Shown here in pieces: positions 1,430 through 64,000 of a stretch of 64,000 nucleotides of DNA. Source of the DNA: Strigamia acuminata (lineage: Eukaryota). The notes under the pieces were generated by a model. It ran no database searches. It was not told where the DNA came from and saw nothing but the letters and a program-made list of their open reading frames with translations. A program made the position numbers and the translations under genes. The DNA lies in the NCBI GenBank assembly GCA_949358305.1, contig OX442314.1:4340001-4404000 (forward strand). The letters are read 5' to 3'. Position 1 is the first letter of the stretch, and every line of letters begins with the position of its first letter.

Positions 1430-4400
1430 CCATATATGTTGATTGCAAACTTCTGGAGGATAAAGTCCTATCAACGACATTTTAAGTTCTGCTGATAGAT
1501 AGTTTGATTTTTCTAAAGAAATTTAAAAAATCTATATCAATATATCTATCAACACCTCTAAATATGCAAGACTCCAGAAAAGCTAGGGTAGTGGTTCAAA
1601 CACTTTCGCATGCTAAACCCTTTAGCTAGTGGTGCATTGCCAGTAGTAATATACCAAGCATGATCAATGATTGTCGGATCTTGCGGTCTGATCGTAACTG
1701 GATCTTGTTGTAAAAGAACAGGTGTGGAAGCGAATATACAAAATGGCCAAGATCGTGTGGTTCTTTAAGTGTTCCTGTCTCGTAATTTGCCACTATGCGC
1801 GCTGGGAACAAGTAGGCCACACGGTCTAAAATAATTACATTAGCGCAACAAGCGGATTTTTATTCGAGTCATTATTTAATGACGTAATTTACAGGCCCGA
1901 TTACGGGTTGCCATTTGGTGGATTTCGGCTAAACTTTGCAAGTTCTTAGGGATAGCCTGAGAGGGCGCTAGAAAATTGTTACGCGCCTGAACCTCGCAGT
2001 AAGACAGCGGGCTCAAACGTGTAGTTCTAGCATTTAAATGGCAATTTCTCTCACTTGAAGAGATGAGTTGCTAAACTCTCTCACTAGTCAGCGCTGTGCT
2101 AATTATGCACATGACGGCTGGACTGATCAACTCATTAGATGGGGAAAACTTTAAAGTTTACTTGCTTAACAAAGCAAGCAGGAGTGATCAGATGAGTTTT
2201 GAACAGTAAGTAGTGAACATGGCTCTAACATGGCTTAGTGGACCAGCACACTCAGTGCTTGGTCCCAATAGCTCAAACCCACTTCAGAATAAATAACATT
2301 GATTATCATTTCATACTTTTCTCATAATTTAGGTTTATAATTTAAGTGTACTATGTATACTATGTTTGAATTGAATAAAACCATTTGTAATAACTCCCAG
2401 AATAAATAAGGTTTGATTTGAAATTGAACTAAAAGTCTTTCTAATTTATTTCACCTCAGGATTCTCAAGGTCTCTCGTCATTAAATAATGATAAGTTGTT
2501 ATGCGTGTTTAAATTCCCCAACTCACACGTAACAATATTTATAACATACATTTATAACACGTGTTTTCAGCGCCACTTGGTTACAAGTTTTGTTACTGGA
2601 ACACTTCTCAAGTCAATATAAAAACTGGAGTTGTTAGAAATAAGCGGAGACGTGCGTGTTCTAGGGAAATGAGATGCTGAGGTGCGGAGAAGCCAACTTT
2701 CAGCAGGAGCTTTGAATGATAGCGAATGACGTGCAACAGGAAGTTGGCGAAAAGTGTCATAAATTATGCTAAAGTGTCCTTTGTTCCCTTGAATATTGAT
2801 ATGTAAACCCCAAAAAGTTACAATAAACTTGTTCCTTCTTCAAAAAAGACATGTTTTATTTCGCTCATCTAGAAAGTTAGAAAATTAGTAAATTTACAGT
2901 TTTCACTCAAAATTAATCAAAATCGACTTTGCGAATCTTCAAATTCAAAGCTAAGGGAGTCACTTCTATACCTGTTTTCTTACAACGTTGTATGGATTTA
3001 AATGCAACAACTAATCAAACACGAGGTGTATTTTTTGTACGGGACACAACTTTCTCACATACATTACCTGTCTTCACTTGTGAACAATTACCAAAAGGCA
3101 GCTGGATAAGACTTGTTGTTATGTTTAGTATAGTTTCATAACCAAAAATGTGCTATAAATATAAATTAAACACAAAATACCATGTATGGTAATTGTTTTG
3201 TTTTATCCATATACCTTGGAAAACTTGTCGTTAACTTGAAGTGTTGAATGGATGTTAAGAGTCTTCCAAACATCATCCATAGACAATTGATTGCCGACTA
3301 ATTTCCAGGGTGGCATGTCATTGCAGGTATTGTTTGTCTGGTTAAGAAACTGCAATCTGGCTTGTTCCATTTTATCACTAAGGTTTTCACCACAAAGTGT
3401 GACACAAGGAAATTCCGTGTGACGACGTTGAACTATGGTAACAACCTGTGACACAGGTTCTTCCATGTAGTAGCTTAAGCGATATTGCAACAAGTATAAA
3501 GTCAATCCTGTGCTAATTACAACTAGCACAAACTTAAGCTTTCTTAAAACTCTGTTAGTTTCACTTTCAATTTGCTCTTCCGTTGCAATTATTTCTTTTT
3601 TGCATTTCTCATAAAGATGGCGAATCTCATCAACATTCCTTTTGCGGTTTGTTACAATCCAATGTAAATACCAAGTGATTTCAGGCAATGAGAGCAACGA
3701 TAGACCCAGAAACAGGCCCAAATTGCCTCCTAAATCTGACAGTAAGGCAATAATGTCGTAGATGTAGCGTTCTTCATACACGTTCATATTCTCATTCGTT
3801 AGTTCAAAAGTTAAGGTCATTATTTTTTTACTATCTGCTTCACCTGAATCTGTGTATGGTGTAAAAACTACTTGCTGACATGGACGGCGACACGAACAAG
3901 AAGAAATTGGATCTGTGGTGTCAATCAATTTACTTATGACGCCGTATTGATCGTTTACAGCATTTGAACATTCACAAAGTGGTAAATTTATCTTCATGAA
4001 AGGCAATCTTATAAAAAGAAAATGACATTCAATTAGGATTGTATCGTAATCCTAGCAGTGTCGACTCACAATATTAAGATTAGGATAAGCACTTAGATCA
4101 ACCCGATTTTTGGCCATTGTTCTATTCAGTCCTTTGGTGGCTGTTTGACCGGATGTGACCAATATTGTCAATTTGGGTCATCTGCCAAATGTGCAGGCAT
4201 TACATTCTGTATTCTTCGGTGCTTTGTGACTTATGGGGTTGTATACAGTATGTAGTGGCTGGCATTTTGTGGGATTGTTTCCAATGCCACACACCACATG
4301 GCTTATGACCGGGCTTGGTGCCTTGGGTGGAAAACCAAATGCAACAAAAGATTTTACCTGCAGGTCAGTTTGTTTTCCAAGCACTTTTGGTAGCAATTTC

Positions 4401-6425
4401 TGAATTCGTTTTCATCGGAGCATGGAACTTTTGACGAGTTGAGAAATACATACTAAAATTAAAAATCCGTCTAGAATTAGATGTTACTTTTAATCAAGTT
4501 CTTGTTACTTTGTCATAACCCAAATTCATGTTAATTGTTGCACCACCGGCTTTATACCTCTTGACGAGGAATTTTCCAAAATTGTGTAATGTCAACATAA
4601 TCTAAGCAAAAAAAAAGAGAATTATCATAATTGTGTTGTCAATTACCATGTTTACATGTAACCACTTATCCAGATAAGTGAAAATGCGAATATTACTTTT
4701 GTAGAAAACTGCATGCGTTTACAAAGAATGAGTTTTCTAACAAATGTGATGTCATATGACGTGTTTAACTCTGTGTTAAACTTGCCATTGATCATCTACA
4801 ATGCACTTCGCAGAAACAACATGTCACAGCATTGTTGTGACGTCAGCTTTTCTAGATAAGTAATGATTGGGTGTTTACATTGCAAATGGCAATGCGCAAA
4901 ACAACCAAAATCAACCTCAAACAATTAGATTTTAGTTTTCCAGATAATTTTGAGTTTTCTGGAAAACTGATTTGTTTACGTGATCAGTTTTCCAGAAAAG
5001 TAAATTTCGCATTTTCACTTATCTGGATAAGTGAGTACATGTAAACATGGTAATTGACATGTACTTTTTTCTTAATATTACCCAGTATCCAGATGCCGGG
5101 CATACATCGTCATAAAAATTTTCAAAATTGACTGTTAATGATTTTCCAACAAATGATTTACTAGAATTCTCATCTAACCAAAAGCAAAAGATAATTTTTT
5201 TTACGTTTAAGCAATAATATACTTGTGTAGGCCTACAACTTACATTTATATACTGTACAAGGTATTTCAGTAAAGTGTTTGCAGTTGAATATTTGTGACG
5301 ATGACGACTCGAGATAGAAATTGCTAACATTTAATGCTAAAGTGAACTGAACAAGTGAGATTAAAGTGCAAAATATGGAGTCGTGTATGTTTTATTAAAC
5401 CATGTCAATTTATTCGGATGGAAATTATGTAATAACTAGACCTGTTGAAAACCAAAATCTTTTTTTCTTAATGAATTGCCTATCTCCTGTTTACTCTAGA
5501 TACGTGAACACAAAGTTACAAAAAGAATTAACTGCAAACACTTTATTGGAACACCCTGTATACAGTAATGTCCACATAACAAATAAGTCAATGCAGAAAG
5601 GACTGTAGATAAAACGACGGGTTAACTGTTGTTTCCATTAAAGTGGACTAATTAAATATATCTTTGGAACAACTGCAGGATATATTTAGAGACAGCATTG
5701 TAATGGCCACACATCATTTACTGTTTACAGTAACTATGGCAACAAATTCACCCTATCTGTGTGCACATTATTTACTATCTGTAGTGTTTACGAAATTTAA
5801 ATGCTGAGCAAATTCCGAAATAGCTTCCGATTTCCGTCTGGACAAAGCTGTTGTTTGTATATCCCTAAAGAAGTTTATCTTATCAGTTAGTTTATTGTTT
5901 GTAATAGTTTTTAATTTTTGCGTTTACTGTCATTTTTATGCTGTGTATTTCCTTGGTCAAATTGGTTGCATTCCAAACTTCATCCATACGCTGAGTTGGC
6001 GTTGCCATAAGAGTTTTCATCATCTTTAGGCAATCAAATGACTTAAGATTACCTGATTTGTCAAATTCTAAAGTTTTGCTATGTGCATGGGTTTTATTCC
6101 AAAGCTTGGCCATTTCTTTTGTATGTCCACTACAGATCATCAAGTACGGCAAAATGACATCTTCCGGTCCACTCGACACGTCAACAGCCGTAGGATAACT
6201 TAAGTAATGCCTTACTCTATCGTATGTCTGATAAGTGAGAACGCTTGTGCAAAATACGAACAAAAGAAGCCATAGGGCGCGATGGCCGCTCCAACGTTGT
6301 TTAATGTTAATGAAATCGTCCAAACCGGTTAAACCACAGCTCGGTTTCTTCGCATCATCTCTCATTAATCGATGAATTTTTAGACGTAGTTTTCCGTTTC
6401 TTCTTGTGGTTTCATTATTCTCCAT
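1430..6425 (-). CDS. DEG/ENaC tandem two-subunit channel gene, copy A, exons 1-8 (5928-6425, 5792-5864, 5082-5173, 4509-4601, 4358-4452, 3215-4007, 3068-3152, 1430-1512); exons 9-11 expected beyond the window start
   Basis: GT-AG sites with consistent phases give an open spliced frame. Motifs: TM1 (RALWLLLFVFCTSVLTYQ..YLSYPT), LPYLMIC, FGICSAF, Cys-rich CYQKC/CSCRRPC, TM2 SDLGGNLGLFLGLSLLS, then a second TM1 and FPCVTLC. Exons match B and C. An alternative ATG lies at 6443. Confidence 0.85.
4641..5055. mobile_element. MITE in intron 3 of copy A
   Basis: About 50-bp terminal inverted repeats (TTACCATGTTTACATGTA..CACTTATC..GATAAGTGAAAATGCGAA). Absent from the homologous intron of copy B near 23705. 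Confidence 0.75.
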
Positions 6426-6617
6426 AATTTTGGTTATTCGCATGACAAACTAGGAATAAAAAAACCGAGTGTATAATAAGTACAGTTATCCAGTTGACAA
6501 ATCTGATTGCATGTGTAGTAACACCAACTTGTAAATTTAGAATCCGTTATGTAGAAGATATATTGTGTGCTTTTGAGTTGATTTGGTAGCTGTAGTTCCT
6601 GCTGTTCGACTCTTGCT

Positions 6618-6690
6618 AAGTTCAAGGTGAACTGACAACACGTGTGTATTCATACATCGTTTCCCAGCAACATGTTGGCTGATTATAGTG
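6618..6690 (-). promoter_or_regulatory. Conserved upstream block of copy A (putative promoter)
   Basis: ATGTTGCTGGGAAAC..AATACACACGTGTTGTCAGTTCACCTTGAACT is nearly identical upstream of all four copies. Confidence 0.6.
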
Positions 6691-7134
6691 TAGATCGGTA
6701 AAGTTTCCTTTGGTTGCTTATTAGTCTTGCTAAGTTATTCAGAAGTTAATTGGAAAATTGTGAGTTGAATTATTGATATGGTGACATGGAAACCCTGGAA
6801 AAACCGATAATCACTACATGAGGTTGCTGTGTTTGCTACACTGCATTGCCCAGTACATTCCATGTTTTAATGTCATCTTAATTTTTGTGACGCGTTAATG
6901 CGTGTTGCGCCACCTATGAATTTATTTTAATATAACAGTTTTTAAGTTTATCTTCAACAATGACTGCCACGTTCATCATGTGACGGTTATAAAACCGAGT
7001 AGTATGCAATTTAACAACAGATGGCGCTATTTAGTAAAAAGCGCGCAATTCGAATACGTTTAAAGGAGTTATATTTAATTCTGGGAATGTATAAATAAAT
7101 TTCTTTTATTTATTGGTCTAAAAATACAACTGTT

Positions 7135-7928: not shown

Positions 7929-8878
7929 TAGGAAAGGAATGTAAGGTACATTATTAAAAGTACAAGTGCATTTGACTCTGTGCAGACGTAAAGGACAGAA
8001 ATCACTTATGATTTGCATGTGCAAAGTACTGCTGTTCTGTTATAAGAAAAATCCACAGTTGAATAACTTGCAACTTATACAATCCTTTTAAAAGCAAGAA
8101 GATAAGCACAAAAGAGAAAACATCTTTAATTTTTATCATAACAATTAGTCTGTGCAAAATTGTAACGGTGAACAAACATTTGGAACAATCCAATGTAGAA
8201 TTAATGAGACATTTAATTGCCTACAATAGACCATTAGATAATTATGACATAATGCAGTTTGGCTCCGCCCACAAAAACAAAACTACAAATTAACAATGTT
8301 AAAATGTTATTTTTCATTGTTTTTTTTCACAAAGGCGGGTAGGGCAACCATTGTTATGATTATGATCACATGATCGGATCACCTGACCTCATTTTTCCAA
8401 AGGTCTATTTGCAAAATCGACCAGCCAGATTGTGTCGAAGCCATTTATAACCTTTTAAAATATCAATGTGCAAAGAAAGTAATGACATTCCCAACGTTAA
8501 TCCCACAATGCTCCCGACATCGCTTAACAACTGAGATGTTGGATATTTCTCTCTTTCCACCGTGGTCTGTATGAAACTATCAGCCATTAGAAACGGCAGA
8601 AATGTATTAAACTTAAATGCCTCTAAGACGTTATTTCCATGCACAATAGGTTGGTAGAAAATATGTTCACAAGGTCGTTTACATTTGCATTGTTTTTGAT
8701 TTATGTTAGAGTTATTCAAATACGTGAAATGGGCTCCAGTAACGTCTTCCGTTGTGTTGCAAGCTGGCAAATTAGATGTTGACATGTACGGTAATCTGAA
8801 ATAAGTAGGCTTACTGTACTGCAATCAAAATTATGTGTAAATACTCCTGATTAATTTTGTTTGTAATCCACACTTATT
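7929..8878 (-). repeat. About 950-bp local duplication of 11595-12550 (terminal exon and 3' flank of copy B)
   Basis: The two stretches align directly with high identity. Confidence 0.9.
8405..8795 (-). pseudogene. Orphan duplicate of terminal exon 11 (Cys-rich segment and second TM2)
   Basis: Open frame CKCKRPC...SDVGSIVGLTLGMSLLS with an intact acceptor, but no exons 7-10 in the duplicated block. Confidence 0.6.
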
Positions 8879-9608
8879 ATCAGCACATAAAACATGCCCG
8901 GAAAAATGGGATTGCACCTGGTAACTAAGATTTTGCACGTGCGCAGAAGCATTTCAGAAAATCACCTAGGAAGTGCTAAAAGGTTGCAAAACAGTGTACG
9001 CCGCTCTCGTAATGGTGTTATATGTTGTAAATGTTACTGTGTATATTATTTTATTAAAGATGGAAGAAATATTAAAACTCAGCTGTTCTAAAATTTAAAA
9101 AGAAATTAGGTGGAATTTAAGTACGGTAGGTCCCCAAAATTAATTTTCACGAAAAAAAGAGTTAGTGGTATTTTACTAATTTTGTTACTTTCCTGACCTC
9201 CTCTTGGCTATGGGAAGGTTAAAGGTCATTAGAAGAAAAATAAAAAATGTCTCTAATCTGTTTGAAGTAGGTAACCTGAAGTGAATTGCTCAGTGTTCCA
9301 AATTTAGGTTTTGACTTGGCCTGCATAATCACACATACAAAATTTTGGTTATACAACAAAATATTGGAATGTATTGTTCAAATAAACAATGATTTTATGA
9401 AGAAACCGATTTGTTTGTGCTTTTTTGAATATGGTGCTAAACTTTTGTCCAGCAAAAATTTGTACACAAACATTAAAAACTACTATTATTAATTACAATG
9501 TATGATTTGTTTAAATGTCTGTATGTGTAATTGCTTTACTAAATACATAACATTTTTTTTTAAATGGAATAGAAATTTCTTGAGCTAATTAGAATGAAAA
9601 TGCTTTTA

Positions 9609-9695
9609 CTTGCAGGTTAGGTTGTTTTCTAATCGTTTGAAAAAGCAATTTTGGCAGCAATCTCTGAAGCAATCACTGGAGCAAGGTGTTTCATA
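9609..9695 (-). pseudogene. Orphan exon resembling channel exon 5
   Basis: Flanked by tttcag and gtaaaa. Translates YETPCSSDCFRDCCQNCFFKRLENNLTC, compared with copy C exon 5 RPCSSENEYRDCYQKCLFKRLENNLKC. Confidence 0.6.
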
Positions 9696-11107
9696 CTGAA
9701 ATTTAAAGGAGACTCAGAATATTGATGTTTTGTAATTTCACAACCATCAACTCTTTCTGGGAGGGTGGGGTTGAACTAGGCCATGTGGGTGTGTTGCCAG
9801 TGACTGGCTACAAACCTTTTGTTGTCTTGCTAGTTTTTTAGGTTTCCCGACTGCCATCTAGTGGCGAGTAAACAAATTCAACGACTCGGTTTCCGGGTTT
9901 CCCGAGTCACCAATGGAACCAAAGCAAAGATTAATGTGTTTTATTTTTGTTGTTTTTGGTTAAAACAATTTTTATCATTATTTTTGTTATTATTTACAGA
10001 TAAAAACAGCAAAGAAAAAGGGCATCGAAAGTTTCTATTTCTGCTGGACGATGATTGACGAAAACGAGGTCAGAGGATAATGGCGGCGGACAAGCACTTC
10101 GGCGCTCGCTTGGCCGCGCTGTGAATTGTGACTTATTTTTATTTATTCGTGTAGAAATTATATTGCTACCACACGGTTCCTGTTCGCGGTAAGTACATTG
10201 TTATTGTTGCACGAATTAACTAAAATTGATTGACATAATACGAGCAAAATAAATTAATTTTAATAATCCAATTACACAAATGGAGACAAATTTAAAGTTT
10301 ATTTTTGATAAAAAAAGTGGTAAATTTATATTTTTAAATGTTGTGAATGATAAAATTTCAATATAAATTGCTAGAATTGAGAGGTTTAAAACGGTGTACA
10401 GTAAAAGCATGCTACACAATTATCAATATTTGTTACACCTAAAATGATGTCAAAAGGTGTAAATGGTGTCAACCTGTGAACTCAAATGGAGTAAATATAG
10501 TGTAAATAGCTCCGAATAAACGTCCAAACGTTTACTCTTTTTAAACACTCGACCCGCCAAGGCGATCATTGAGTCAGGTGTTTAATTGGCTTTTCGGCCC
10601 AAAAATGAAATTTTATGCAACAAAAAGTGTTTTTGTTGCCAAAATTTTACGTTTTTGAACGGTGTATGATGCTACGTTGGGAATGCCACATCTACGTTAA
10701 GTGTACGATCCCGGTGATTAATTGGACACTATTGCAAATGACAAGCGTGTAAAATTTCAGGCAAAGTAACGTACATTTTATAATAATTATTATTATTAAA
10801 CAAATGCTAAAGGAGATGTTACAAAATATTAAAATGACTTGACCACTTTCACATGAGTCAAGTAGTGCAGTGACCACTTTCATTTAAGGTAAGTGACACA
10901 ACTGAAAGCAGTCACAACTTTTTTGTTTATTTGTTTATTTGGTTTTTTTGAATTAAAGTAAAATCAGTGTATTTTTCAACCCTCATGTGCAAATTTATTT
11001 ATTTATTACACTAAACCTGAAAAACTTGAAATAAACATTTTGATTAAACACTGAAAAGAGGTGACCACTTACACCTGGGTTTGAGTAGTAATATCTTAAT
11101 TCCATTG

Positions 11108-11260
11108 CTATACTCTTTCCACACTCAAGAGGTCCCCTCTGAAGCTTGGCTCCCATTGGCCACCATATCACTGGTGTACTAATCCTCAGAACTGCAGTTG
11201 ATTGGTGGCCAATGGGAGCCAAGCTTCAGAGGGGACCTCTTGAGCATGGAAAGAGTATAG
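11108..11260. repeat. Inverted repeat with 58-bp arms and a 37-bp spacer
   Basis: 11108-11165 is the reverse complement of 11203-11260 with 2 mismatches. Confidence 0.9.
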
Positions 11261-11289
11261 TAATTTGCCTTATCAACCGTATAGAGAAT

Positions 11290-14140: not shown

Positions 14141-15709
14141 GGGTGTTGAAGCGACTATACAACATGGCCAAGAAAATTTATTTGCGTAAGTGTTCCAGTT
14201 CTGTAATTTGCCACCAAGCAAGCTGGAAACAAATAGGCCATCAGAACACACATGTGATGTTTAAATTACCTTAGCTCAGACCACACGGTCTAAAATAATT
14301 ATATTAGCGAAACAAACTCATTTTTATTCGAGCTATTATTTATTTAAGTTAATGACGTAATTTACAGGCTCGATTACTGGGTTGCCACATGGCGGACGTC
14401 GGCTAAACATTGCTAGTTCTTAAGAATAGCCAGAGAGGGTACCAGCATATTTATAACATGGCCCACATGTTCTTTAGCGCCACATGGTGCCAAGTTTCCT
14501 TACTGGAACACTTATCGGGTTAAAGCTAGGGGTGTCTCTTCAATACCTGCTCTCTTACACCGTGATGTGGATTTAAATACAACAATCAATCAAGCACACG
14601 GTTTATTTTTTGTACGGGATACAACATTACCTGTCTTCACTTGTGAACAATTACCAAAAGGCAGCATTATTCCTATAATAAAAAAAAAGGTGCTGATTAG
14701 AGCGCTGTATGGTAATTGTTTTGTTTTATCCATAATACCTTAGTCACATTGTTATTAACCTGAAGTGTTGGATGGATCTTAAGAGTCTTCCAAACATCTT
14801 CCTTGGACAATTGATTGCTGACTAATTTCCAGGGTGACATCTCATTGCAGGTTTTGTTTTTCTGGTTAAGCAACTGCAATCTGGCTTGTTCCATTTTATC
14901 ATTATGATTTTCAGCACAAAGTGTGACACAAGGAAATTCTGTGTGGCGACGTTGAACTATGGTAACAACCTTTGACACAAGTTCTTCCATGTAGTAGTTT
15001 AAGCGATATTGCAACAAGTATAAAATCAATCCTGTACTAATTACAATTAGCACAAACTTAAGCTTTCTTAAAACTCCGTTAGTTTTAATTTGCTCTTCAC
15101 TCGCAATGAGTTCTTTTTTGCATATCTCATAACGATGGTGAATCTCATCAACATTCTTTTTGCGATTTGTAACAATCCAATGTAAATACCAAGTGATTTC
15201 AGGTAATGAGAGCAACGATAGACCCAGAAAGAGGCCCAGATTGCCTCCTAAATCTGACAGTAAGGCAATAATGTCGTAGATGTAGTGTTCTTCATACATG
15301 TTGATATTCTCATTCGTTAGTTTAAAAGTTAAGGTCATTATTTTTTTACTATCTGCTTCACCTGCATCTATGTATGGTGTAAAAACCACTTGCTGACATG
15401 GACGGCGACACAAACATGAAGAAATTGGAGCTGTGGTGTCAATCAATTTACTTACGACGCCGTATAGATTGTGCATAGCGTTTGAACATTCACAAAGTGG
15501 TAAATTCATCTTCACTACAGGCAATCTTAAAAAAAGAAAATAACATTCAATTAGGATGGACCTCCTTTTCATAATCCTAGTGCAAGTGTCGACTCTCTGA
15601 ATCTCTATATGTGAAATCCACTTTCTGTTTAGGGAAGGGATTACAAGATTAAGATTAGGATAGGTACTTAGATCAACCCTTAAATCAATCCGATTTTTGG
15701 CCATTGTTC

Positions 15710-16201: not shown

Positions 16202-19200
16202 TAAAGCGATTTCCTGGCCAAAACATCGGTTAGAAAGGAGTTGACGAGTGTCTAAACAGGTGCGCGACCCCGACATGCGTGCGCCATGTTTAATATCACA
16301 TAAAAGTGTACACGCTTCGAGGCTAACAACTGCACTCGGAAAAATAGGATAAATCATTGTTGGATTTCAATGATTTGTCCTTTACATTATAAAATAAAAG
16401 CAATGACATTCATAATCGATAACTAAGCAATAATAACAATACAGGACTCGCTCTTTTGAGCAGACGATGTTATCAGCGCATGCTGCTAAATGGAAACGTT
16501 CAACCGCGGTACAGAACCAGCATTAATAAAAATCGAGATCGATTGAACGCGACATCGAGACATTAAATAGCAGCACATTCATTACACATATCCGGAAAGT
16601 GTGTAATGTAAATATTCACAAACTATACAATATGGCGACAAACAACCAAACACACAATATTTCCACCACAACTCAATATATCCCCCTTTGTTTGGTTATT
16701 TGCGCCTTACAAATAAATGCTCACACAAGGTGTTAAGTCTGGGCTTGGGTAACCATTTGGTCATCACATCGGCGACATTCAGGGCCCCTGGAATATGCTT
16801 AATAGCAAACGTTCCGCGCTCAAACCAGTCCCTGAGGAAATGAAGCTTTACGTCGATATGTTTATTCGCCCTATTCTCTATTCGGTTTTTGGCGTATTGT
16901 ATCGCGGGCATACTGTCCGCGTACACGCATGGGGTGTTCCGATTGATGCTGAACATGATGTCGGCATCGTAAAGCCTCTCTAGCCATATAATCTCCTTTA
17001 CGCCATCGACCACGGCCAGAAATTCACTCTCCATGATCGATAACGCAGTCATTGACTGCTTATGGCAGTTCCACATGATCGGAACGCCACCCAAATAGAC
17101 TATGTGACCCCCGAAGCTTCTCCTTTTGTCTGCATCGAGGGCAAACGACGCGTCGGTATACACAGTTAGATTATCATTTCGGCAATTGGAAAGATTAATC
17201 ATATAATCCGACGTATTTGCCAGATATCGCAAAATTTGCAATAACATACTAATGTGACGCGTCGAATGTTTCTCATTGTATTGTGAGAGGACAATGACCG
17301 AGAACAGGATGTCTGGCCTTGTCCTGCTCGCCAAGAACAAGAGACTTCCCACTAAGTTGCGATAGGGGAAAGTGGAATCAACCCGCTCCTTTTCCGTCAC
17401 GCCCTGAATAATCGTTCCTGGCGTCCCAGGTACTCTAATCCGAAGGCATGAGTCGACCCCATACAACTTACAAAGTTTTTCTATGTATGCCCTTTGATGG
17501 ATCCTAATTTGGCCCCCAGACCTATCAAAGGCTATGCCTAACAAGAGGGTCACGGGACCCAAATCAACCGTGTCAAAGGATTCCCTAATCCATCGAACAA
17601 CGCATTCCTCGACGTAGTCATCCTTGGAGAAGAGAACTATGTCGTCCACGTAAAAGATAAGAATTGCGTCGTTGTCTAACGCATAAACACAGTTAAGACC
17701 CAACAAGGGCACAAATCCCAGTTGGAGTAGACGGTCGTGGAGGGCTTGGTACCACATCCGTCCACTCTGATGTAGTCCATATAATGACTTCAACAGCATC
17801 CAACACTTATGTTGGTTTTCGGCTGTTCTGTAGCCCTTGGGAATCTCCATGAATTGGACCTTATCAAGGTCCCCGTACAAGTACGCGGCCTTGATGTCAA
17901 GGTGGACATCTCTCCAACCTTTCAGTATCACCAAGGTACAGAAAAACACTATAACGAGGACGAAATTGACTACGGGGGAAAATACCTCCGTAAAGTCAAT
18001 GCCCGGCCTCTGCTTGAAGCCTTGTGCTACCAAGCGAGCCCGGTAGCGCGCGACTGCACCCGACTGGTCCCTTTTCATTTTATAAATCCATTTTGATCCC
18101 AAAAGCAACTCTCCTTCGGGCTTATCAATTTCTTTATAGACAGTTCGATCGTCGAAGATATCTGTCTCTTCTTTCATCGCCTTTTCCCAGTCCCGTTTGT
18201 TGGTGTGCCTCATTGCCTCCTCGTAGGTATCAGGCTCTACGGCACAGAAACCGGCAAAAGGGAGTTCGGGTTCTTCACCCTCTAAGGTTTTGAAGTCAAA
18301 AAGATCTGGGTCGTAGTGGTAACCCTCTGCGTCGCACCATCGCGCAACGTCAGTCCGACTTCTAAGTTTGTCTTCATTGGGCGAGAAATAAACCACATCA
18401 ATTTTCCCAGCCGTTGCCCCGGCTTTCCGGACAGACTGGACCCGTCTCCACTTAGTCATATCCAGCGGCAGCGACAAAGGATCTTTGACCTTCTTTCCCT
18501 TTTTGCCCGAACCACGACGAGCTTGTATCGTAGGAGGAAGATCAACCTCCTCATCGTCGTCAGGATAAACATTGAAGTAATTCTCGCCATCGCCGTTATC
18601 CCCCTTCGCCCCACCAATTTCTTCAACTGGATTATCCCCAGCACCAGCATCCCCAACCAAGTCACCTTCAACAGTTTCTATCGCAGGCTGTTGTATCGCT
18701 TGTTTTACAAGCGGCCTCAATTCAGGTCTGAAAACAGGCTTTGGGGTTGTGGGTAAAGGAGGCTTCTCCTTCGGAACCGGGGGTTCAACAGGGGGCGGAA
18801 TAGGAGGTGGTAGTGCCTCTTGCACTTCCTCAACAATTTCAGGGATAGGGGCAACGGAATCATCATCATCTCCCTCGGTGTCCGAGGAAGAATCCCCAAA
18901 ATGTTTGAATTGGCCACCCTGCGGTTGCTTGATGGGCTGTTGTAGCCGTTTGCCAATCTCATACCAATATGAGTCTTCGAAAATTCGGACATGTTTGGAC
19001 GCAAAAACTTGATTCCGTACAGGATCCCAAACCCTGTAGCCCCTAGTTGATATTGCGTATCCAATGAGTGCTCCCGCCCAAGCCCTTCCTTCCAGTTTGC
19101 CCTTTCTGGCCTGGGACGGGATATGTACAAATGTCTTCGACCCAATACACCTGATGTGTCGCAAAGACAATTTCTTGCCGAAAAACACGGTATAGGGCAC

Positions 19201-22200
19201 TTTTCCTCCAAGCCCTTCATGGGGGAATCGGTTCTTTAAGTAAACTATGGTCGTCGCTAATTCAGCCCAAAGGGGATAGGGGAAATCATTTTCCAACATT
19301 AAAGCTCTGACGCCACCGACAATGGTACGGTTTGCACGTTCTGCAACAGAATTCATTTCCGGGCTATATGTATTCGTACGAATACATTTCAAACCAATTT
19401 TGGATGCATAATCATCCCAATTCCGCGAAATAAATTCTCCTCCATTATCAGTTTTAATGCATTTCACTTTCCGTGATGTCGTTCTTTCGACTTCCGTCAA
19501 CCAACGTTTAAAATGGCCCAAAACTTCCCCTTTGGTCTTCATCGTTATGATCCACATATAACGTGAATAATCATCAACCAATATAAAGTAAAAATTAGCC
19601 CCACCCAAGGAAGTAGCTTGTGATGCCCCCCAAACATCCATGTGCACTAAATCTAATACTCCCTTAGTGGAAATGGTAATTATCGGGGGAAAACTCGCCC
19701 TAGTGCTCTTAGCACGGGCACATGCGTCACAAGTGGATAATTCTTTGTTAGACAAATTGATCCCAAAAACGTCCTCGGATTCGGTTAATTTAATAATGCC
19801 TTTAGCATTATGGTGGCCCATTCTGGAATGCCACGTGTCCATACTCTGGGATATTTCTTTCTTTCTCATTTTGATCCCAGTATCCCCGCTTTTGTTAACT
19901 TTCGCAGTCGCATTAGCTTCGGGAACAATAGCAGGAGGTGTCTGAACCTCATTCACTGTTTTCTGTAAATTAATCGCCGCAGGCGCATTCGCTTTGGTTG
20001 GCTCGCTTACTTGCGTACTCAAATTAGATGCGGATTTTCCCATATCCGGCTTACAGAAACTTTTTAGTAAAGCTGACTTAAAATCTAAAATGGTTAGTAG
20101 CGGTTGTACAAATTTTTCATCCTTCACGGATGATTTGATTAAATCGAGGACAGCAGCTGTATCCTGTTGCGCAGTTAATGCAGCTGTGTTTACAGAATTA
20201 ACCTCGACCCGGCAGTTGACTTTGTACAGCCTGTCGCTAGTCCGAACTGCCGAAATCAATGGTTCCTCGATTTTATCTTTGAAAATACTCATCTTCCCAT
20301 CTTTAACAATTGTGCACAACCCAGCCTCATCGGTGCGCCCGAGCGAAATAAGGTTTTTCCGAAAATTCGGTGCGAAGAATACATTCGTCAAAGTTATTTT
20401 CCTCGTTCTTTGTCCATAGAGCGAAGTGAGGACGATGTTGCCCACACCTTCAATCTTCGATTTTCCTTCTCCTTGTAGAACGCTGAAGTTAGACAACGGT
20501 TTGAAGTTTGAAAACCAATTCCGGTTGAAGGAAAAGTGGTCGGTCGCTCCCGTGTCCACGTACCACTGTGAATCGTAGTTTCCGTGCGACACAAGAGATA
20601 AGGGCACTGTGGGCTTCTCTTCCGACACCGCAGAATACAAAGTGTAGGGCTCATCTGTATAGGGGTCCAGTTGTGTGAGATTTGCTCTCTGTGGACCCCC
20701 TCTGCCTCGTCCTTTGCCACGGGTGCCTCCACGATTCAATTGGGCTGGCGAGCCAGCGCTGGCGGGGAAAGTCCCTTGCTGTTTCGGCGGCGATGGGCAC
20801 TCCCTGGCGAAGTGTCCCGACCCACCGCAAGTAAAACATGTTCCACGCGAAGTTCCGGGGGAATTTGGGGTTTTTCCACGAGGTTTCCATTTCCCTTTAG
20901 TATAGAAAGCGGTAGTATTGTCTGCCAATACAGGTGGGACGCCAAATTCATTGGTCTGTTCATAAAGGCGATTGTACTCGCCAAGTAAACGTTCTTTAAC
21001 GTTTTTCGCTGTGAATTCCGTATCCGACCAGTGATACGCGGTCTGTTTCACAGCCTCGTATTGTGGGGGCAGAAGATCTAAATATTGGAATGCCTGGAAT
21101 TCATCGGTGACCTCAATTTTAACGTCCTTCAGTTCGACAATTTTGCGGTCGACCCGCCCGGTGAAAACTAGCATTTCCTCATTATCTCTAAGTTTCATGT
21201 TGAGGAATTCACGTCGCAACCGAGCACGACGTGCCCTCGTCGTCGGTTGATAAGCGTCCTTTAGGGCTTCCCAAACTTTAGCAGCGGTGGGGCAGGCAAC
21301 AGCTATCACTTGCTGCGGCTCGGCGCAACTCATGCAAATAGTGGACATTGCCTTGTCCTCTCGAGCGTTAAACTCCCGCTTCTCTTTTGCAGTGGCTGTT
21401 GCAGCCAGTGGTGGCTCAGAGCCACTAACATGTCCCCAAACGCCGTTGTATTTGAGCAATAACTGGACCTGCACGGACCAGGTGGCATAGTTCGTGCCAT
21501 CGAGCTTTTTAATATCCTTGTAATCGTCGTGTTTTGAAGCCATCGCGACGACACAAGGAAAATGCACAATAATAATTAGTTATGCACGGAGAAAACACAA
21601 TTTCGGAATTTATTCCGCACAAACACTTCACAGGAGCACTTAATCACACAATGCACAATTGTCTCTAGTCCCAAAAACCAAAAAGGAAGGCGAAAATACA
21701 GTTTCAACCCGGGGAATCTCAATAAGTGAGATTGGAAAACCTTGACTGGCAATCCACCAACTCTTCCGTCCGACCTCCTGGGGTCGCGGGATGGTTGGGG
21801 GCCCTGGATAAGCCCAGCCAAGAATACAGTGTTACGTGCCCGACTGGACGTAGGGTAGCACCGAATCTAACAAGGGACCAACAACAAAAACTTAAAACTA
21901 ACAAAGTTTCACGACAATATCTAATTAAATACACTTTTTCGTTGTTAAGTTGGGCGAATTGCGGGATCCGATCGTCGCAATCGCTTCCTCGTAGCGGTGA
22001 ACGTCGGGTTGACGTTATTGGTGCACGGAACTGGGGCCGACGTGCTACCACTTGCACACTTCCGTGCAAAAGTGGGGAAAAATAATCCAAAATCGTCGTT
22101 GCGCACGTCCGCGCCTTCGTGTAGCACACCGGGGTGCAAGCCACGGCTTTTCCGCTCAAAATTGGTCGTGTACGTAGGCTTATACGTACGCAGACACTCC

Positions 22201-23222
22201 CGATTGATTTCCACCGTCGGCAGCGATGAAAATCCAAACAAAAATGGCCGCTGGTGAGGATTTGTTCTTCACCAGCGATCCCACGATGATTTTCGTCCGT
22301 TTCGTGATGAAAAATCGTCGTTTCGGCGATTGAAGGCGCCGTTCCGCTGAGATACGCGTTGTCTCGTTGAAAATTGACGTTGTCTTGAAGAAACAACGTC
22401 GTGCGGGCGTGAATAGACCCGATACACGCTCTGGTCGGCTGGCTACGCTGCCTGGGCGATCCAAGATGGCCGCCGCACAAAAATTTTCAAAGTCGACGAT
22501 TTTGGTGTTTATTTCACACCGAAAAATTGCAAAAACACACAGCTTACGCTTGTAAATGTCCGAAATAATGTCCGCACACCCTGTCAATCCGTTTCAAGCG
22601 CGTTGGCGAGGTGAAACCCGTCCTGGTCGATCGAGTCGCGTTTGCGGCGATGTCGAGCGACGTCTGGGCTACGTTCGGTCTCCAAAAATGCCGAAAATCC
22701 TTTACAAACTGGTTGGGCCGTCGTCAACCATCCTCTGCTACCATATAAAGCGATTTCCTGGCCAAAACATCGGTTAGAAAGGAGTTGACGAGTGTCTAAA
22801 CAGGTGCGCGACCCCGACATGCGTGCGCCATGTTTAATATCACATAAAAGTGTACACGCTTCGAGGCTAACAACTGCACTCGGAAAAATAGGATAAATCA
22901 TTGTTGGATTTCAATGATTTGTCCTTTACATTATAAAATAAAAGCAATGACATTCATAATCGATAACTAAGCAATAATAACAATACAGGACTCGCTCTTT
23001 TGAGCAGACGATGTTATCAGCGCATGCTGCTAAATGGAAACGTTCAACCGCGGTACAGAACCAGCATTAATAAAAATCGAGATCGATTGAACGCGACATC
23101 GAGACATTAAATAGCAGCACATTCATTACACATATCCGGAAAGTGTGTAATGTAAATATTCACAAACTATACAATATGGCGACAAACAACCAAACACACA
23201 ATATTTCCACCACAACTCAATA
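16202..23222 (-). mobile_element. Full-length Ty1/copia LTR retrotransposon with MBD (copia-1)
   Basis: 477-bp LTRs at 16202-16678 and 22746-23222 with no differences seen by eye. 5-bp TSD AGTCC. PBS 22726-22743 matches 18 nt of the tRNAi-Met 3' end. PPT AAAGGGGGA. Single gag-pol ORF. Confidence 0.97.
16696..21543 (-). CDS. Copia gag-pol polyprotein (gag, zinc knuckle, protease, integrase, MBD, RT, RNase H)
   Basis: CFTCGGSGHFAREC; WYVDTGAT; WHSRMGH..CDAC; MDVW/TDNGGEF/AER; MBD WRRVQSVRKAGATAGKIDVVYFSP..KLRSR..FDF; YRARLVAQGF; YVDD; YTDAS..KHIDVK. Start taken at MASK; the ORF track starts at 21567. Confidence 0.95.
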   Translation of the reverse strand: MASKHDDYKDIKKLDGTNYATWSVQVQLLLKYNGVWGHVSGSEPPLAATATAKEKREFNAREDKAMSTICMSCAEPQQVIAVACPTAAKVWEALKDAYQPTTRARRARLRREFLNMKLRDNEEMLVFTGRVDRKIVELKDVKIEVTDEFQAFQYLDLLPPQYEAVKQTAYHWSDTEFTAKNVKERLLGEYNRLYEQTNEFGVPPVLADNTTAFYTKGKWKPRGKTPNSPGTSRGTCFTCGGSGHFARECPSPPKQQGTFPASAGSPAQLNRGGTRGKGRGRGGPQRANLTQLDPYTDEPYTLYSAVSEEKPTVPLSLVSHGNYDSQWYVDTGATDHFSFNRNWFSNFKPLSNFSVLQGEGKSKIEGVGNIVLTSLYGQRTRKITLTNVFFAPNFRKNLISLGRTDEAGLCTIVKDGKMSIFKDKIEEPLISAVRTSDRLYKVNCRVEVNSVNTAALTAQQDTAAVLDLIKSSVKDEKFVQPLLTILDFKSALLKSFCKPDMGKSASNLSTQVSEPTKANAPAAINLQKTVNEVQTPPAIVPEANATAKVNKSGDTGIKMRKKEISQSMDTWHSRMGHHNAKGIIKLTESEDVFGINLSNKELSTCDACARAKSTRASFPPIITISTKGVLDLVHMDVWGASQATSLGGANFYFILVDDYSRYMWIITMKTKGEVLGHFKRWLTEVERTTSRKVKCIKTDNGGEFISRNWDDYASKIGLKCIRTNTYSPEMNSVAERANRTIVGGVRALMLENDFPYPLWAELATTIVYLKNRFPHEGLGGKVPYTVFFGKKLSLRHIRCIGSKTFVHIPSQARKGKLEGRAWAGALIGYAISTRGYRVWDPVRNQVFASKHVRIFEDSYWYEIGKRLQQPIKQPQGGQFKHFGDSSSDTEGDDDDSVAPIPEIVEEVQEALPPPIPPPVEPPVPKEKPPLPTTPKPVFRPELRPLVKQAIQQPAIETVEGDLVGDAGAGDNPVEEIGGAKGDNGDGENYFNVYPDDDEEVDLPPTIQARRGSGKKGKKVKDPLSLPLDMTKWRRVQSVRKAGATAGKIDVVYFSPNEDKLRSRTDVARWCDAEGYHYDPDLFDFKTLEGEEPELPFAGFCAVEPDTYEEAMRHTNKRDWEKAMKEETDIFDDRTVYKEIDKPEGELLLGSKWIYKMKRDQSGAVARYRARLVAQGFKQRPGIDFTEVFSPVVNFVLVIVFFCTLVILKGWRDVHLDIKAAYLYGDLDKVQFMEIPKGYRTAENQHKCWMLLKSLYGLHQSGRMWYQALHDRLLQLGFVPLLGLNCVYALDNDAILIFYVDDIVLFSKDDYVEECVVRWIRESFDTVDLGPVTLLLGIAFDRSGGQIRIHQRAYIEKLCKLYGVDSCLRIRVPGTPGTIIQGVTEKERVDSTFPYRNLVGSLLFLASRTRPDILFSVIVLSQYNEKHSTRHISMLLQILRYLANTSDYMINLSNCRNDNLTVYTDASFALDADKRRSFGGHIVYLGGVPIMWNCHKQSMTALSIMESEFLAVVDGVKEIIWLERLYDADIMFSINRNTPCVYADSMPAIQYAKNRIENRANKHIDVKLHFLRDWFERGTFAIKHIPGALNVADVMTKWLPKPRLNTLCEHLFVRRK

Positions 23223-24998
23223 AGTCCCACCCATGGTAAAAAAATAAGTTACGTAACATTATTGCGAACCCCCCCCCCCTCCCCCGTCGTAACAATCCGT
23301 AACAAAATTTGAAACTTTCCCCCCGCCGTAAGGCATTATGTAATTTATTGATGGTTCCTTATATCACCAGGCTTGGTGCCTTAGATGGAAAACCAGATGT
23401 AACAAAAGATTTTACCTGCAGGTCAGTTTGTTTTTCAATGCTTTAAACAAGCACTTTTGGTAGCAATCTCTGAATTCGTTTTCATTGGAGCATGGATCTT
23501 TTGAGGAGTTGAGAAATACATACTAAAATTTAAAATAGACTGAATTAGATGTTACTTTGAATCAAGTTCTTGTTACTTTGTCATAACCCAAATTCATGTT
23601 CGTTGTTGCACCACCGATTTTGCGCATATTTAAGAAGACTTTTCCAAAATTGTATAATGTCAACATTATCTAAACAAAAAGGAAAGAGAATTATCAGAAT
23701 TATGTTGTCATTGGCATGTATTTTTTTAATATTACCCGGTATCCAGATGACGGGCATACATCGTGATAAAAATTTTCAAAATTGACTGTTAATGATTTTC
23801 CAACAAATGATTTACTAGAATTCTCATCTAACCAAAAGCAAAAGATATTTTTTTTTACTTTTAAGCAATAATATGTGTATGAGGCTTACAGCCTATATTT
23901 ATATACAGTATCAAGAACGGACTGCAGATAAAACATCCGGTAAACTGTATACAGTTAACCGGTTGTTTCCATTAAAGTTTACCAATTAATTATATCTTTG
24001 GAATAATTGCAGGATATTTTTAGAGGCAGCATTGTAATGGCCACCAAGCATTTCCTGTTTACAGTAACAATGGTAACAAATTCACACTATCTCTAATTGT
24101 TACAAAAATTATTCAACTGATACATTCTTGAGTGACCATTATTTACTATCTGTAGTATTTACTAAATTTAAATGCTGAGCAAATTCCGAAATAGCTATCG
24201 ATTTCCATCTGGACAAAGCTGTTGTTTGTATATCCCTAAGGAAGTTTAACTGATCAGTTATTTTATTGTTTATAATAGTTTTTAATTTTTGCTTTTACTT
24301 TCATTTTTATGCTGACTATTTCCTTTGTCAAATTGGTTGCATTCCAAACTTCATCCATACGTTGAGTTGGGGTTGCCATAAGAGTTTTCACCATGTTTAG
24401 GCAATCAAATGATTTAAGGTTGCCCGATTTGTCCACTTCTAAAGTTTTGCTATTTGCATTGGTTTTATTCCAAAGCCTAGCAATTTCTTTTGTATGTCCA
24501 CTACAGATCATCAAGTACGGCAAAATGACATCTTCCGGTCCACTCGATACGTCAGCAGCCGTAGGATAACTTAAGTAATGCATTACTCTATCGTGTGCCT
24601 GATAAGTGAGAATGCTTGTGCAAAATACGAACAATAGAAGCCACAAGGGGTGATGGTTGTTCCACTGTTGTTTATTGTTAATGAAATCATCCAAACCTGT
24701 TAATTGGCAAACCGGTTTCTTCGCATCATCTCTCATTAATCGATGAATTTTTAGACGTAGTTTTCCGTTTCTTCTTGTGGTTTTATTATTCTCCATAATT
24801 TTGATTATTCGCACGACAAACTAGGAATTAAAAAAAACCGAGTGTATAATAAGTACATTTATCCAGTTGACCAATCCTATTGCAGTCGACCTTGTATAGT
24901 AACACCATCTTGTGAATTTAGAATCCGTTAGGCAGAAGATATATTGTGTGCTTTTGAGTTGAGTAGGAACCTGAAGTTACTGCTGTTAGACTCTTGCT

Positions 24999-25070
24999 AA
25001 GTTCAAGGTGAACTGACAACACGTGTGTATTCATACTTAGTTTCCCAGCAACATGTTGGCTGATTATAGG
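24999..25070 (-). promoter_or_regulatory. Conserved upstream block of copy B (putative promoter)
   Basis: Same block as upstream of A, C and D. Confidence 0.6.
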
Positions 25071-30543: not shown

Positions 30544-30614
30544 TCTATAATCGACCACTATGTTGCTGGGAAACTATGTATGAATACACACGTGTTGTCA
30601 GTTCACCTTGAACT
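30544..30614 (+). promoter_or_regulatory. Conserved upstream block of copy C (putative promoter)
   Basis: X-box-like GTTGCTGGGAAAC at 30562-30574, then CACGTG and Inr-like TCAGTT. Confidence 0.6.
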
Positions 30615-33362
30615 CTGCAAGAGTCGAACAGCAGAAACTACCAACTCAATTCAAAAACACATTCAAAAGCAAAATATCTCTTCTGCATACAGGATTCAAA
30701 ATTCACAAGTCTGTGTCCAAATTTGTCAACATCATAAATGTAATTATAAACCACTCAATCCTTTATACTCATTTGTTGTGCGTATAACCTAATTTAGGTT
30801 ACCTAAGCAATGAGAAGGAACAGAAAACTACGTCTGACAATTCGTCAATTAATGAGAGAAGATGCGAACAAACCAAGCTGCTGTTTATCTGGTTTAAATG
30901 ATTTCATTAGTAGAAAACGACGTTGGAGCAAAATTCACGCTTTATGGCTTCTTTTGTTATTATTTTGCACTTGCATGCTCACATATCAGACATACAATAG
31001 AGTGATGCATTACTTAAGTTATCCTACGGCTGTTGATGTATCGAGTAGATCGGATGACATCGTCTTACCATACATCGCGATCGGCAGTACGAATACAAAA
31101 GAAATTGCTAGGCTTTGGAATAAGAGTAGTGATTTAGACAAAACAGGTCGGATTAATCCATTCCATTGCATAAATGTTATGAAAACTCTTATGTCAAGCC
31201 CAAACTACAAAATGGACGAAGTTTGGAAAGGAACTAATTTGACACCAGAAATAGTGAGCATCAAAATGAAAGTAAAAGAAAAGCAAAAATTAAAAATTAT
31301 CGTGAAGAATAAAATCTAATTATATACACCTCTGCAGGGTTATTCCAACAAAAGCATTGTCCAGACGGAAATAGACAGCCCATTCGGAATGGGCTCAGCA
31401 TTTCGATTTGGTAAGTGATTAATCAACTGCCTTGCTGTGTTCACTTCACTGCATGACCCAATGAACTTAATATTGTTAATACTTGTTAATACTGTTTTCC
31501 CAGCTTTCTTTACGTTTAATTATACTTTATGCAAATAAAATCACTTGTAATTTTACTGTAACAATGATCATATCGTCCATTCGTTATCCGCTATCGTAAA
31601 ATACATTGAGTACAAAGCGTACTATGCCTAAAAGTAAAATAATCTTTTTTCCACCGTGTTTAGATAAGAATTCTAGCAAATCGTTTGTTGGAAAACTACT
31701 AACAGTGAATTTTGAAAAGTTTTATGATGACATCTGCCCAGGAGTTTCATACAGGGTAATATAAAAACCATTGCAATCCAACAGCAACAAGAGAAACAAA
31801 ATTCCTTTTTTTTTTGAACTTTTAGATTGCGCTATCATTATATAATTTTGGAAAAGCATTCTTTACTATATCTAAAACCGACTGGTACAACAGTAAAAAT
31901 AAATTTGAGTTATGACAAAGTAAGATTTAAACTTGATTAAAATGAAACAACTCTTCTAACTCTCGTTTATATTTCAGTACGTGTTTCTCAATTCATCGAA
32001 ACGCCCGTGCTCCAGTGAAAATGAATACAGAGATTGCTACCAAAAGTGCTTGTTCAAAAGATTAGAAAACAACCTGAAATGCAGGTAAAAGCAATTTCTT
32101 CCTAACTAACCCAAAAAATGACATTTTATGACAAATTTGTTTAATTTACTAACAAATGTTATTATAAAGGTTTTTGCTAAATCAAACAACCAAAGCCCTG
32201 CATTTTTGCTCAAAATCAAAGCCACTGAACAAAACCATTATAATTTCATTAAATTCTTTTTTTCTTCTTAAGATTTCCTTTTCTGAAGATGAATTTACCT
32301 CTCTGTGAATGTTCAGATGCTATACACGATCAATACGGCATAGTCAATAAATTAATTGACACCACAGACCCAATTACTACTTGTGCTTGTCGACCTCCAT
32401 GTCAGCAAATGGTTTTCACACCCTATACAGACTCCGGCAAAGCAGATGATAAAAAAATAATGTCTTTGACTTTAGCACTAACCAATGATAAAGTCACCGT
32501 GTACCAAGAGCGGTTCACTTACGACGTTATTGCTTTACTATCTGATTTAGGCGGCAATTTGGGACTATTTCTCGGCCTATCGTTACTTTCATTACCTGAA
32601 ATCACGTGGTATTTATATTTTGTTGTGACAACTAAGCGCAAAATTACCAACCTTGATAAAATTCGACGTCTCTATGAGGAATCCAAGAAAGAAGTCGCTG
32701 AGAGTGAAGAGAAGATCAAAACTAACAGTTTTAAGAAAGTTTAAGTTGCTGATGGTTGTAATTAGTGCAGGATTCACTCTATACTTGTTGCACATTCGTT
32801 TAAACTACTATCTGGAAGAACCTATATCAAAAATCATTACCATAGATCAACGGCGCTACATAGAGTTCCCATCCGTCACACTCTGTGGTGAAAATCGCAG
32901 TGATGAGATGGAACAAGCCAGATTGGAGTTACTCAAAGAGACAAACAAAACTTGCAACGACATATCACCGTGGCAATTGGTCAACAATAAATTGTCATTA
33001 GAAGATATTTGGAAGACCCTAAATGTCCATCGAACACTGAGTTTGAAGAACAAGTTCGGCAAGGTATACGGATTTTAAAAACGTACAATTCATAGTGTAT
33101 GAAATATATATTTACAGTATCTTTTTGGATACACAAAATCACTAAGTATGGCAACGAGTCTCGTCCCACTTCCGTTTGGTTATTGTTCACAAGTTAACAC
33201 AAGTAATTCACATGGAAACGTTATCAGTTCAACTGAATAAGACTGCTATTGGTTGGCATATTTATTGTGTGAATTGAAAAATGACTGTGACAAACAGATA
33301 TGCAACCCAAACAATTTTATTGTCATCCCTACAGGTTGCTGAGAATTGCCACCGGAATTAAC

Positions 33363-38395: not shown

Positions 38396-38426
<31 letters not shown>

Positions 38427-63624: not shown

Positions 63625-64000
63625 ATGGAAAGGAACAGAAAACTACGTCTGACAATTCTTCAATTAATGAGAGAAGATGCTAAAAAACCGAGCTGTGGTT
63701 TAACTGGTTTAAATGATTTCATTAAAAGAAAAAGACGTTGGAGCAAGATTCACGCTTCATGGCTTCTTTTGTTATTATTTTGCACATGCATTCTTACTTA
63801 TCAGACGTACGATAGAATAATGCATTACTTGAGTTATCCTACAGCTGTTGATGTATCGAGCAGATCGGATGACATCGTTTTACCATACATCACGATCTGC
63901 AGTACGAATACAAAAGAAATGGCTAGGCTTTGGAATAAGAGTAGTGAATTAGATAAATCAAATCTATTCCAGTGCACAAACATGATGAAAACTCTTATGG
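63625..64000 (+). CDS. DEG/ENaC gene copy D, exon 1 (partial, runs off the window)
   Basis: Open frame MERNRKLRLTILQLMREDAKKPSCGLTGLNDF..WLLLLLFCTCILTYQTYDRIMHYLSYPT, a close paralog of C exon 1. Not listed in the ORF track. Confidence 0.85.
   Translation, partial: MERNRKLRLTILQLMREDAKKPSCGLTGLNDFIKRKRRWSKIHASWLLLLLFCTCILTYQTYDRIMHYLSYPTAVDVSSRSDDIVLPYITICSTNTKEMARLWNKSSELDKSNLFQCTNMMKTLM

Follow-up and report, generated by a model that had tools for sequence, protein, structure and literature searches.

Solved structures of DEG/ENaC channels are trimers (PMC10148893). Among them, the best matches by sequence in this analysis are BRTNaC1 (E about 1e-25) and PDPNaC1 (2e-16), and the same two channels are the best matches by fold, with a TM-score to the target of 0.70-0.75. 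BRTNaC1 has 431 aa and is encoded by seven exons (PMC9974506), and PDPNaC1 is a homotrimer (PMC12714832). For BRTNaC1 (PDB 8YMR and related) and PDPNaC1 (PDB 9JF7), Scolopendra antennal channels, the likeness lies in a compact subunit of about 400 residues. Both are single two-helix subunits with three chains per structure entry, whereas the centipede chain reported here has two subunits. Since identity to BRTNaC1 and PDPNaC1 is only about 20%, heat or proton gating cannot be assumed for it.

To our knowledge, linked DEG/ENaC subunits are known only as laboratory tools. The original prediction for this locus knew of no characterised natural two-subunit chain, and our full-text literature search, with most subscription papers outside its reach, likewise found no natural DEG/ENaC concatemer. 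As read from the coding sequence, the usual DEG/ENaC rule of one subunit, with two membrane helices, per polypeptide is broken here at the DNA level. The architecture, within a known channel family, is real, selected and apparently undescribed.

The junction exon and the eleven-exon gene

The window, a stretch of 64,000 nucleotides of Strigamia acuminata, contains three nearly complete gene copies (A and B on the minus strand, C on the plus strand), exon 1 of a fourth copy (D) and one relic. The junction between the two subunits lies within exon 6:

3215..4007 (793 nt), minus strand: junction exon of copy A, between an AG acceptor and a GT donor, open
14739..15525 (787 nt), minus strand: junction exon of copy B, between an AG acceptor and a GT donor, open
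32273..33063 (791 nt), plus strand: junction exon of copy C, with AG/GT ends and 2 nt lost in the linker

The original prediction had placed all three exons exactly, with AG/GT flanks found at each. Along exon 6, subunit 1 ends with its Cys-rich thumb and TM2; a charged linker follows, and subunit 2 then begins with TM1 and its first ectodomain strand. An open junction had been claimed for two paralogs, and in A and B the frame is indeed open from the thumb to the next TM1; in C, the 2-nt loss in the linker breaks it just 5' of the second TM1. In A as in B, exon 6 is matched by Pfam ASC over two separate stretches (E 2e-20 and 2e-17), and the two frames of copy C are matched at profile positions 346-453 and 18-95. 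The linker has about 33-45 residues, and 32-33 codons separate the helix ends as we drew them, which makes the predicted length of about 40 aa a fair estimate. Across the linker of A, positions 3522-3683 are covered by an identical contig in each of two public runs. These contigs argue against mis-assembly; because they may come from the window's own sample, they give no independent support. The fused two-subunit DEG/ENaC frame is confirmed as real at the DNA level.

The remaining parts of the copies, and a conserved block upstream of exon 1, are as follows:

5928..6425, minus strand: copy A exon 1, with the N-terminus, pre-TM1 segment and TM1 of subunit 1
5864-5792, 5173-5082, 4601-4509, 4452-4358, minus strand: copy A exons 2-5, subunit 1 ectodomain
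3152-3068, 1512-1430, minus strand: copy A exons 7 and 8
24796-24299, 24235-24163, 23827-23736, 23669-23577, 23522-23416, minus strand: copy B exons 1-5, open
14631..14672, minus strand: remnant of copy B exon 7, its 5' part and original acceptor replaced
13865-13783, 12963-12868, 12770-12661, 12467-12071, minus strand: copy B exons 8-11, remainder of subunit 2 with TM2 and stop
30810-31271, 31338-31410, 31664-31755, 31826-31919, 31978-32084, plus strand: copy C exons 1-5
33118-33202, 42372-42454, 42748-42843, 44229-44338, 46056-46518, plus strand: copy C exons 7-11, each open
63625..64000, plus strand: copy D exon 1, cut by the window end
8405..9695, minus strand: relic between B and A, with an exon-5-like piece (about 9695-9610) and a duplicate of B exon 11 (about 8795-8405)
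about 6430-6815, 24800-25180, 30420-30800, 63250-63620: conserved upstream block, four copies

The 11 exons placed all have AG/GT ends. Intron phases ahead of exon 6 run 0,1,0,0,2 and do so again after it (0,1,0,0,2), and the small exons measure 73/92/93/107 nt in the first repeat versus 85/83/96/110 nt in the second. With breaks masked and read through, the chain has 806 residues in B and 818 in C, close to the spliced protein of about 800 aa that had been proposed. In each of these read-through chains, two near-complete subunit domains are matched by a profile made from 19 single-subunit relatives, and the two halves are only 18-21% identical to each other. All ten exon ORFs scanned exceed the 23.6-bit cut-off of Pfam ASC (PF00858), at 30.6-73.6 bits. 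Two units of TM1, Cys-rich ectodomain and TM2 are present in read-through B and C, and in the structure model of the full-length relative P0008 described below. Canonical splice sites, a TM2 and a stop were all found in exons 7-11, which therefore finish the second subunit as claimed. The expectation of two ASC domains and four TM segments held for the domains of read-through B and C and for simple hydropathy in C, with four peaks, but not for A and B, in which the first TM1 is missed at the same threshold. Overall, the intron-free open junction, the repeated phases and the two profile domains per chain agree with the original statement that the fusion is not a gene-merging artefact.

We also considered a third subunit on either side. 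One hidden 5' of exon 1 was ruled out because the conserved upstream block is full of non-triplet indels, and one 3' of the chain because a stop comes soon after TM2 in exon 11 of B and C. The chain therefore has two repeats, not three. The non-coding upstream block, conserved among the four copies and almost unchanged over a core of about 60 nt, is a candidate promoter or 5' UTR element.

None of the copies is seen whole and undamaged in the window. Exons 1-8 of A give 604 open codons with no stop, including an in-frame 12-nt deletion in exon 5, and tblastn found none of its exons 9-11 in the 64-kb window. For exon 7 of B the nearest acceptor yields a stop, and the first stop of the chain is codon 552. 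Copy C as assembled has an extra nucleotide in exon 4 (first stop at codon 239) besides the loss in exon 6, and its intron 7 extends over 9,169 nt. The two-subunit family of the original prediction stands, but the lesions in B exon 7 and C exon 4 had not been mentioned there. The exon-11 copy in the relic is 91% identical to the last exon of B, downstream flank included. Judging from the lesions in B and C and the large young insertions in B intron 5 (7,890 nt) and C intron 7, the array is turning over. The insertion in B intron 5 is:

16202..23228: young LTR retroelement, LTRs 99.6% identical, with a single long open frame of 1,627 aa

From its appearance we take this element to be of copia type. 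A second young LTR retroelement, at 47030-55688, has terminal repeats that are 99.7% identical and is broken by an insertion carrying a 599-aa ORF at 52173-53972. Within C intron 7, at 33664-42301, an 832-nt direct repeat pair (99.3%) flanks a 990-aa ORF. The window also contains a tandem array of an 18-nt repeat at about 28650-29750, open in all six frames, and near-perfect short palindromes at 33363-33445, 11104-11264 and 54188-54270, probably miniature transposon remnants.

Selection, relatives and origin of the fusion

We estimated dN/dS for each half by the Nei-Gojobori method with 95% bootstrap intervals. For A and C, the ratio is 0.31 (0.23-0.41) in half 1 and 0.36 (0.24-0.56) in half 2; for B and C, it is 0.31 (0.22-0.42) and 0.38 (0.28-0.50). 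From these values, both halves have been constrained over the older split. The original prediction had been wary of neutral evolution in one half, and no neutral half was seen against C (0.31 and 0.36-0.38). For A and B, the ratio is 0.56 (0.37-0.81) in half 1 and 0.76 (0.40-1.84) in half 2. This recent pair is relaxed, or for half 2 too short to tell, and it gives no evidence of recent selection on half 2. In the linker, dN/dS is 0.20 (0.07-0.61) for A and C, and the A-B and B-C intervals include 1.

Paralogue contigs were compared with the copies as well. On exon 6 of A, all eight of their indel rows lie in the linker or at its edge, and per contig these indels total multiples of three (-6, -6, -3-3, +1+1+2+2), with rows assigned to contigs by equal depth in our own reading. 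Both lesions of C are absent from paralogue contigs in three runs from two studies (among 12 of 145 indel rows); run X6 covers only the repeat at the end of the C stretch.

In a word-based search, S. maritima T1JEH2, which is 52% identical over 99% of exon 6, was the only longer homologue, and by this match alone the source is likely a geophilomorph centipede. A word-based search with the junction alignment returned only three proteins among 5,687 candidates, all from S. maritima. A phmmer search over 1.84 billion representatives returned 343 hits, the best 150 of which were examined. Among these best 150 of 343, the subunit profile restarts within at least 35 proteins. We looked up 25 of the 35: 17 are from S. 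maritima, two from Halocaridina, one from Polypedilum and one from Helobdella, three are Logan proteins (one of which clusters with a Penaeus vannamei RefSeq protein) and one is an ENA ORF on a 1,154-base contig. The same junction appears in at least 14 S. maritima protein models, down to about 25% identity, when P0005-P0007 of the 17, a separate clade with younger repeats, are set aside. These relatives are automatic gene models read as proteins, several of which are incomplete or wrongly joined (P0001, P0012). Eleven sequences, with identity as low as 21%, can be aligned over the junction; their linkers are of similar length, and no linker column is invariant or nearly so among them. Three further findings support the claim that we are not looking at a gene-merging artefact: divergent S. 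maritima models have the junction too, dN/dS is below 1 for each half, and linker indels keep the frame.

It could still be asked whether the fusion arose by accident and has no function, in a tandem array that is decaying. B and C do have disabling lesions and large retroelement insertions, and A is incomplete in the window. However, the junction is open also in models that are only about 25% identical, both halves are under purifying selection and the frame is kept in paralogue contigs. We consider an accident very unlikely.

We found no paper that remarks on the two-subunit layout of the S. maritima models. For the S. maritima genome paper (PMC4244043), a search that covered 7 of its 57 supplement files brought up no such remark, and the accessible parts of PMC5203786, PMC7067487, PMC7510291, PMC8438182 and PMC5952958 do not mention a concatenated layout. 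For candidate PPK sequences of S. maritima, PMC8438182 cites Vizueta et al. 2020.

Trees were built from the split subunits, with FastTree on 91 rows after pieces shorter than 180 residues were dropped, and with a quick IQ-TREE run on 38 chosen rows. The first halves form one clade in both (SH-like 90 in FastTree, 14 of 91 rows; SH-aLRT 93 in IQ-TREE, 11 of 38 rows). Ten second halves group at 95 in FastTree and 11 are on one side of a branch with support 71 in IQ-TREE; long branches are flagged in both trees, and the better model gives the second halves little support as a clade. Within the two-subunit family, the two halves of one protein are never sister. The nearest tree rows are other Strigamia proteins, in trees that contained no named Drosophila PPK set, and single-subunit relatives (P0019, P0021) are present in S. 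maritima. As the simplest reading, the protein trees point to one old fusion followed by expansion. Long ago, the last exon of a six-exon gene would have merged with the first exon of a tandem neighbour, an event expected to produce the repeated intron phases and similar exon sizes described above, and the fused gene would then have multiplied by birth and death, which would make B and C likely dying copies.

The multi-repeat models from Polypedilum (P0014), Centruroides (P0095) and Helobdella (P0039), and P0132, were tried as support and discounted. Their repeats group within each protein, so we left them uncounted; they are possibly merged tandem genes. A second, younger concatenation in Strigamia is seen in P0005 and P0006 (S. 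maritima) and P0017, where overlapping models imply three repeats with 47-56% mutual identity; it could be a merged annotation.

Chains with three repeats were found elsewhere. P0042 and P0116 from the shrimp Halocaridina rubra each hold three DEG/ENaC subunits in about 1,250-1,300 residues. Six chains of about 1,270 residues (P0048, P0071, P0154-P0157) come from Logan contigs of 4.2-5.3 kb. P0071 and P0154-P0157 are 42-79% identical to P0048 over the region searched, P0048 and P0071 have three ASC stretches each, and all six can be aligned end to end. Repeats of the Logan chains group by position with the Halocaridina repeats (long branches flagged). The three-subunit layout is conserved across several protein clusters. 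Three repeats per chain would fit a trimer, and from their sequences these decapod proteins are candidate natural single-chain trimeric channels. The shrimp chains have an origin separate from the centipede fusion. We also noted three-repeat chains of about 1,000 residues (P0040, P0056, P0066, P0135) in which the middle repeat has both membrane helices and the thumb and most of the ectodomain is missing; P0056 clusters with Penaeus vannamei XP_069977668.1. The predicted fold of P0040 has low confidence (pLDDT 60, pTM 0.41), and its packing is not readable.

Pore asymmetry and assembly of the predicted chain

The two halves differ at positions that matter for the pore: TM2 of the first half is canonical, and the second half has altered pore residues. 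In TM2, G3' is present in 23 of 23 first halves versus one of nine pattern-matched second halves, and an acidic 18' residue in 18 of 23 versus one of nine. A tenth second half, P0037, was missed by the pattern; by eye it has alanine at 3' and keeps the acid at 18'. Both halves of B and C have the G-x-S belt (G10', S12'; TM2 numbering from PMC5449180), as does the first half of A. In ASIC1a, E18' governs sodium selectivity (PMC5449180), and we infer that the 18' numbering can be transferred to these chains. The halves differ upstream of TM1 as well. In ASIC1, the pre-TM1 region with its His-Gly motif is a re-entrant loop that lines the lower pore (PMC7308080). The first halves in the window have an aligned pre-TM1 segment with the glycine and without the histidine, as do some single-subunit relatives, and no segment of the second halves aligned to this region. 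Such divergence at pore positions would exemplify a symmetric pore turning asymmetric in nature.

AlphaFold2 was run on P0008 with a 32-row alignment, giving a pLDDT of 75.5 and a pTM of 0.71. The model has long helices at 42-71, 359-395, 419-452 and 755-790, at the expected membrane positions, and residues 393-419 of the linker are mostly below a pLDDT of 50. The pTM suggests that the two halves are placed relative to each other with some confidence; the score does not give the geometry and may reflect a resemblance to solved trimers. A complex prediction of P0008 (70-760) with the single-subunit P0019 (108-411) scored 0.24, with the mark at 0.34, in a run without alignments and with controls not folded.

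A chain of two subunits cannot fill a trimer alone, and thus calls for an unusual solution: a partner that is always required, two trimers that are linked, a cut between the subunits, or a pore of four subunits. The original prediction had named 2+1 assembly, linked trimers and cleavage, but neither exon skipping to a single subunit nor a four-subunit pore. We favour, at slightly better than an even chance, an expanded family of fused genes whose predicted four-helix chain fills two of the three trimer positions, with a separate single subunit in the third. The chain would be made as one protein, so that the order of subunits and the 2+1 stoichiometry of an asymmetric cation pore would be fixed. 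Either a single-subunit gene or an exon-skipped form of the fused gene itself would supply the third subunit. By analogy with the nearest characterised relatives, we would guess at a sensory role (heat, acid or chemical).

A separate partner may not be strictly required, since engineered two-subunit ASIC1a chains conduct alone and break into smaller products (PMC4529235). These fusions, and the tetramer argument of the same paper, keep the rivals to a 2+1 assembly alive. The chain might assemble without an outside partner, either as three chains in two linked trimers or as two chains giving a trimer and a spare half. This agrees with the ASIC1a fusions that are functional alone in oocytes (PMC4529235), with a linker of low model confidence, which may hence be flexible, and with the fact that no partner gene was pinpointed. 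However, the linker is short and of similar length in divergent paralogues, and poor conduction is probable for a trimer that includes two second halves, given their pore residues and the lack of a pre-TM1 segment. Assembly of the chain by itself thus seems unlikely to us.

Cleavage would act on the same linker. In a polyprotein, the cytoplasmic linker would be cut and two ordinary subunits released in equal amounts, which would then form trimers. The linker is charged, variable and, by topology, cytoplasmic, and engineered concatemers give smaller bands that their authors read as cleavage or incomplete synthesis (PMC4529235). On the other hand, a shared cut site is not visible among the 11 junction sequences, as no linker column is invariant, and the released second half would be without a pre-TM1 segment. 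We regard cleavage as improbable.

Splicing could also separate the halves. By skipping five exons, the messengers could be mainly single-subunit, or one gene could make both forms, its own third subunit included. Joins of exon k to exon k+6 stay in frame to the final stop in four of five cases in B and three of five in C, the others meeting known lesions; with seven of ten joins in frame, the third subunit could in principle come from the gene itself. In the relic at 8405-9695, a copy of exon 11 comes after an exon-5-like piece, which is the corresponding order. Nevertheless, the repeated phases by themselves put such joins in frame, so the joins do not show that skipping is used, and mainly single-subunit messengers would leave unexplained why the linker is kept in frame in paralogues and has a dN/dS of 0.20 between A and C. 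We give exon skipping a low probability.

Two does not divide three, yet the two-subunit form has lasted and expanded. In two-pore potassium channels and TPCs, two chains pair into a four-subunit pore. If two of the centipede chains paired in the same way, the result would be a two-fold symmetric pore of four subunits, the first non-trimeric DEG/ENaC. Cell-surface tetramers of ASIC1a were reported from one cross-linking study (PMC4529235). In contrast, solved DEG/ENaC structures are trimeric (PMC10148893), those of the nearest centipede channels included, and the other natural chains have three repeats. A four-subunit pore here is a slim prospect, and we put the same small weight on its combination with the idea that concatenation arose repeatedly in arthropods, as two-repeat centipede and three-repeat shrimp single-chain channels. 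If true, it would be a natural test of the old trimer-versus-tetramer dispute.

Comparison with known channels

Several known systems resemble the chain in part. The same junction and layout are found in S. maritima UniProt entries such as T1JEH2, T1JD34, T1ITL7 and T1J963, which are named "Uncharacterized protein" and many of which are fragments. Annotation pipelines that split apparently 'fused' gene models would hide such chains. The family is large and belongs to a blind soil centipede whose relatives sense heat and protons with channels of this kind, and it may therefore be an overlooked family of sensory receptors.

Heterotrimeric DEG/ENaC channels include ENaC, ASIC2a/3 at 1:2 (PMC10329638) and Drosophila Ppk26 with its partner (PDB 9PZN/9PZO; four and two chains over the two entries). 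In these, three subunits make up one pore in fixed and unequal numbers, the arrangement that we propose for the centipede chain; their subunits, however, are separate polypeptides from separate genes. There is also a likeness in layout to engineered ASIC and ENaC concatemers, in which head-to-tail subunits are functional and the composition is fixed (PMC5449180, PMC8871370, PMC4529235). The engineered ASIC1a concatemer keeps full tails and has an added linker, whereas the natural chain has a short linker and a second half without a pre-TM1 segment.
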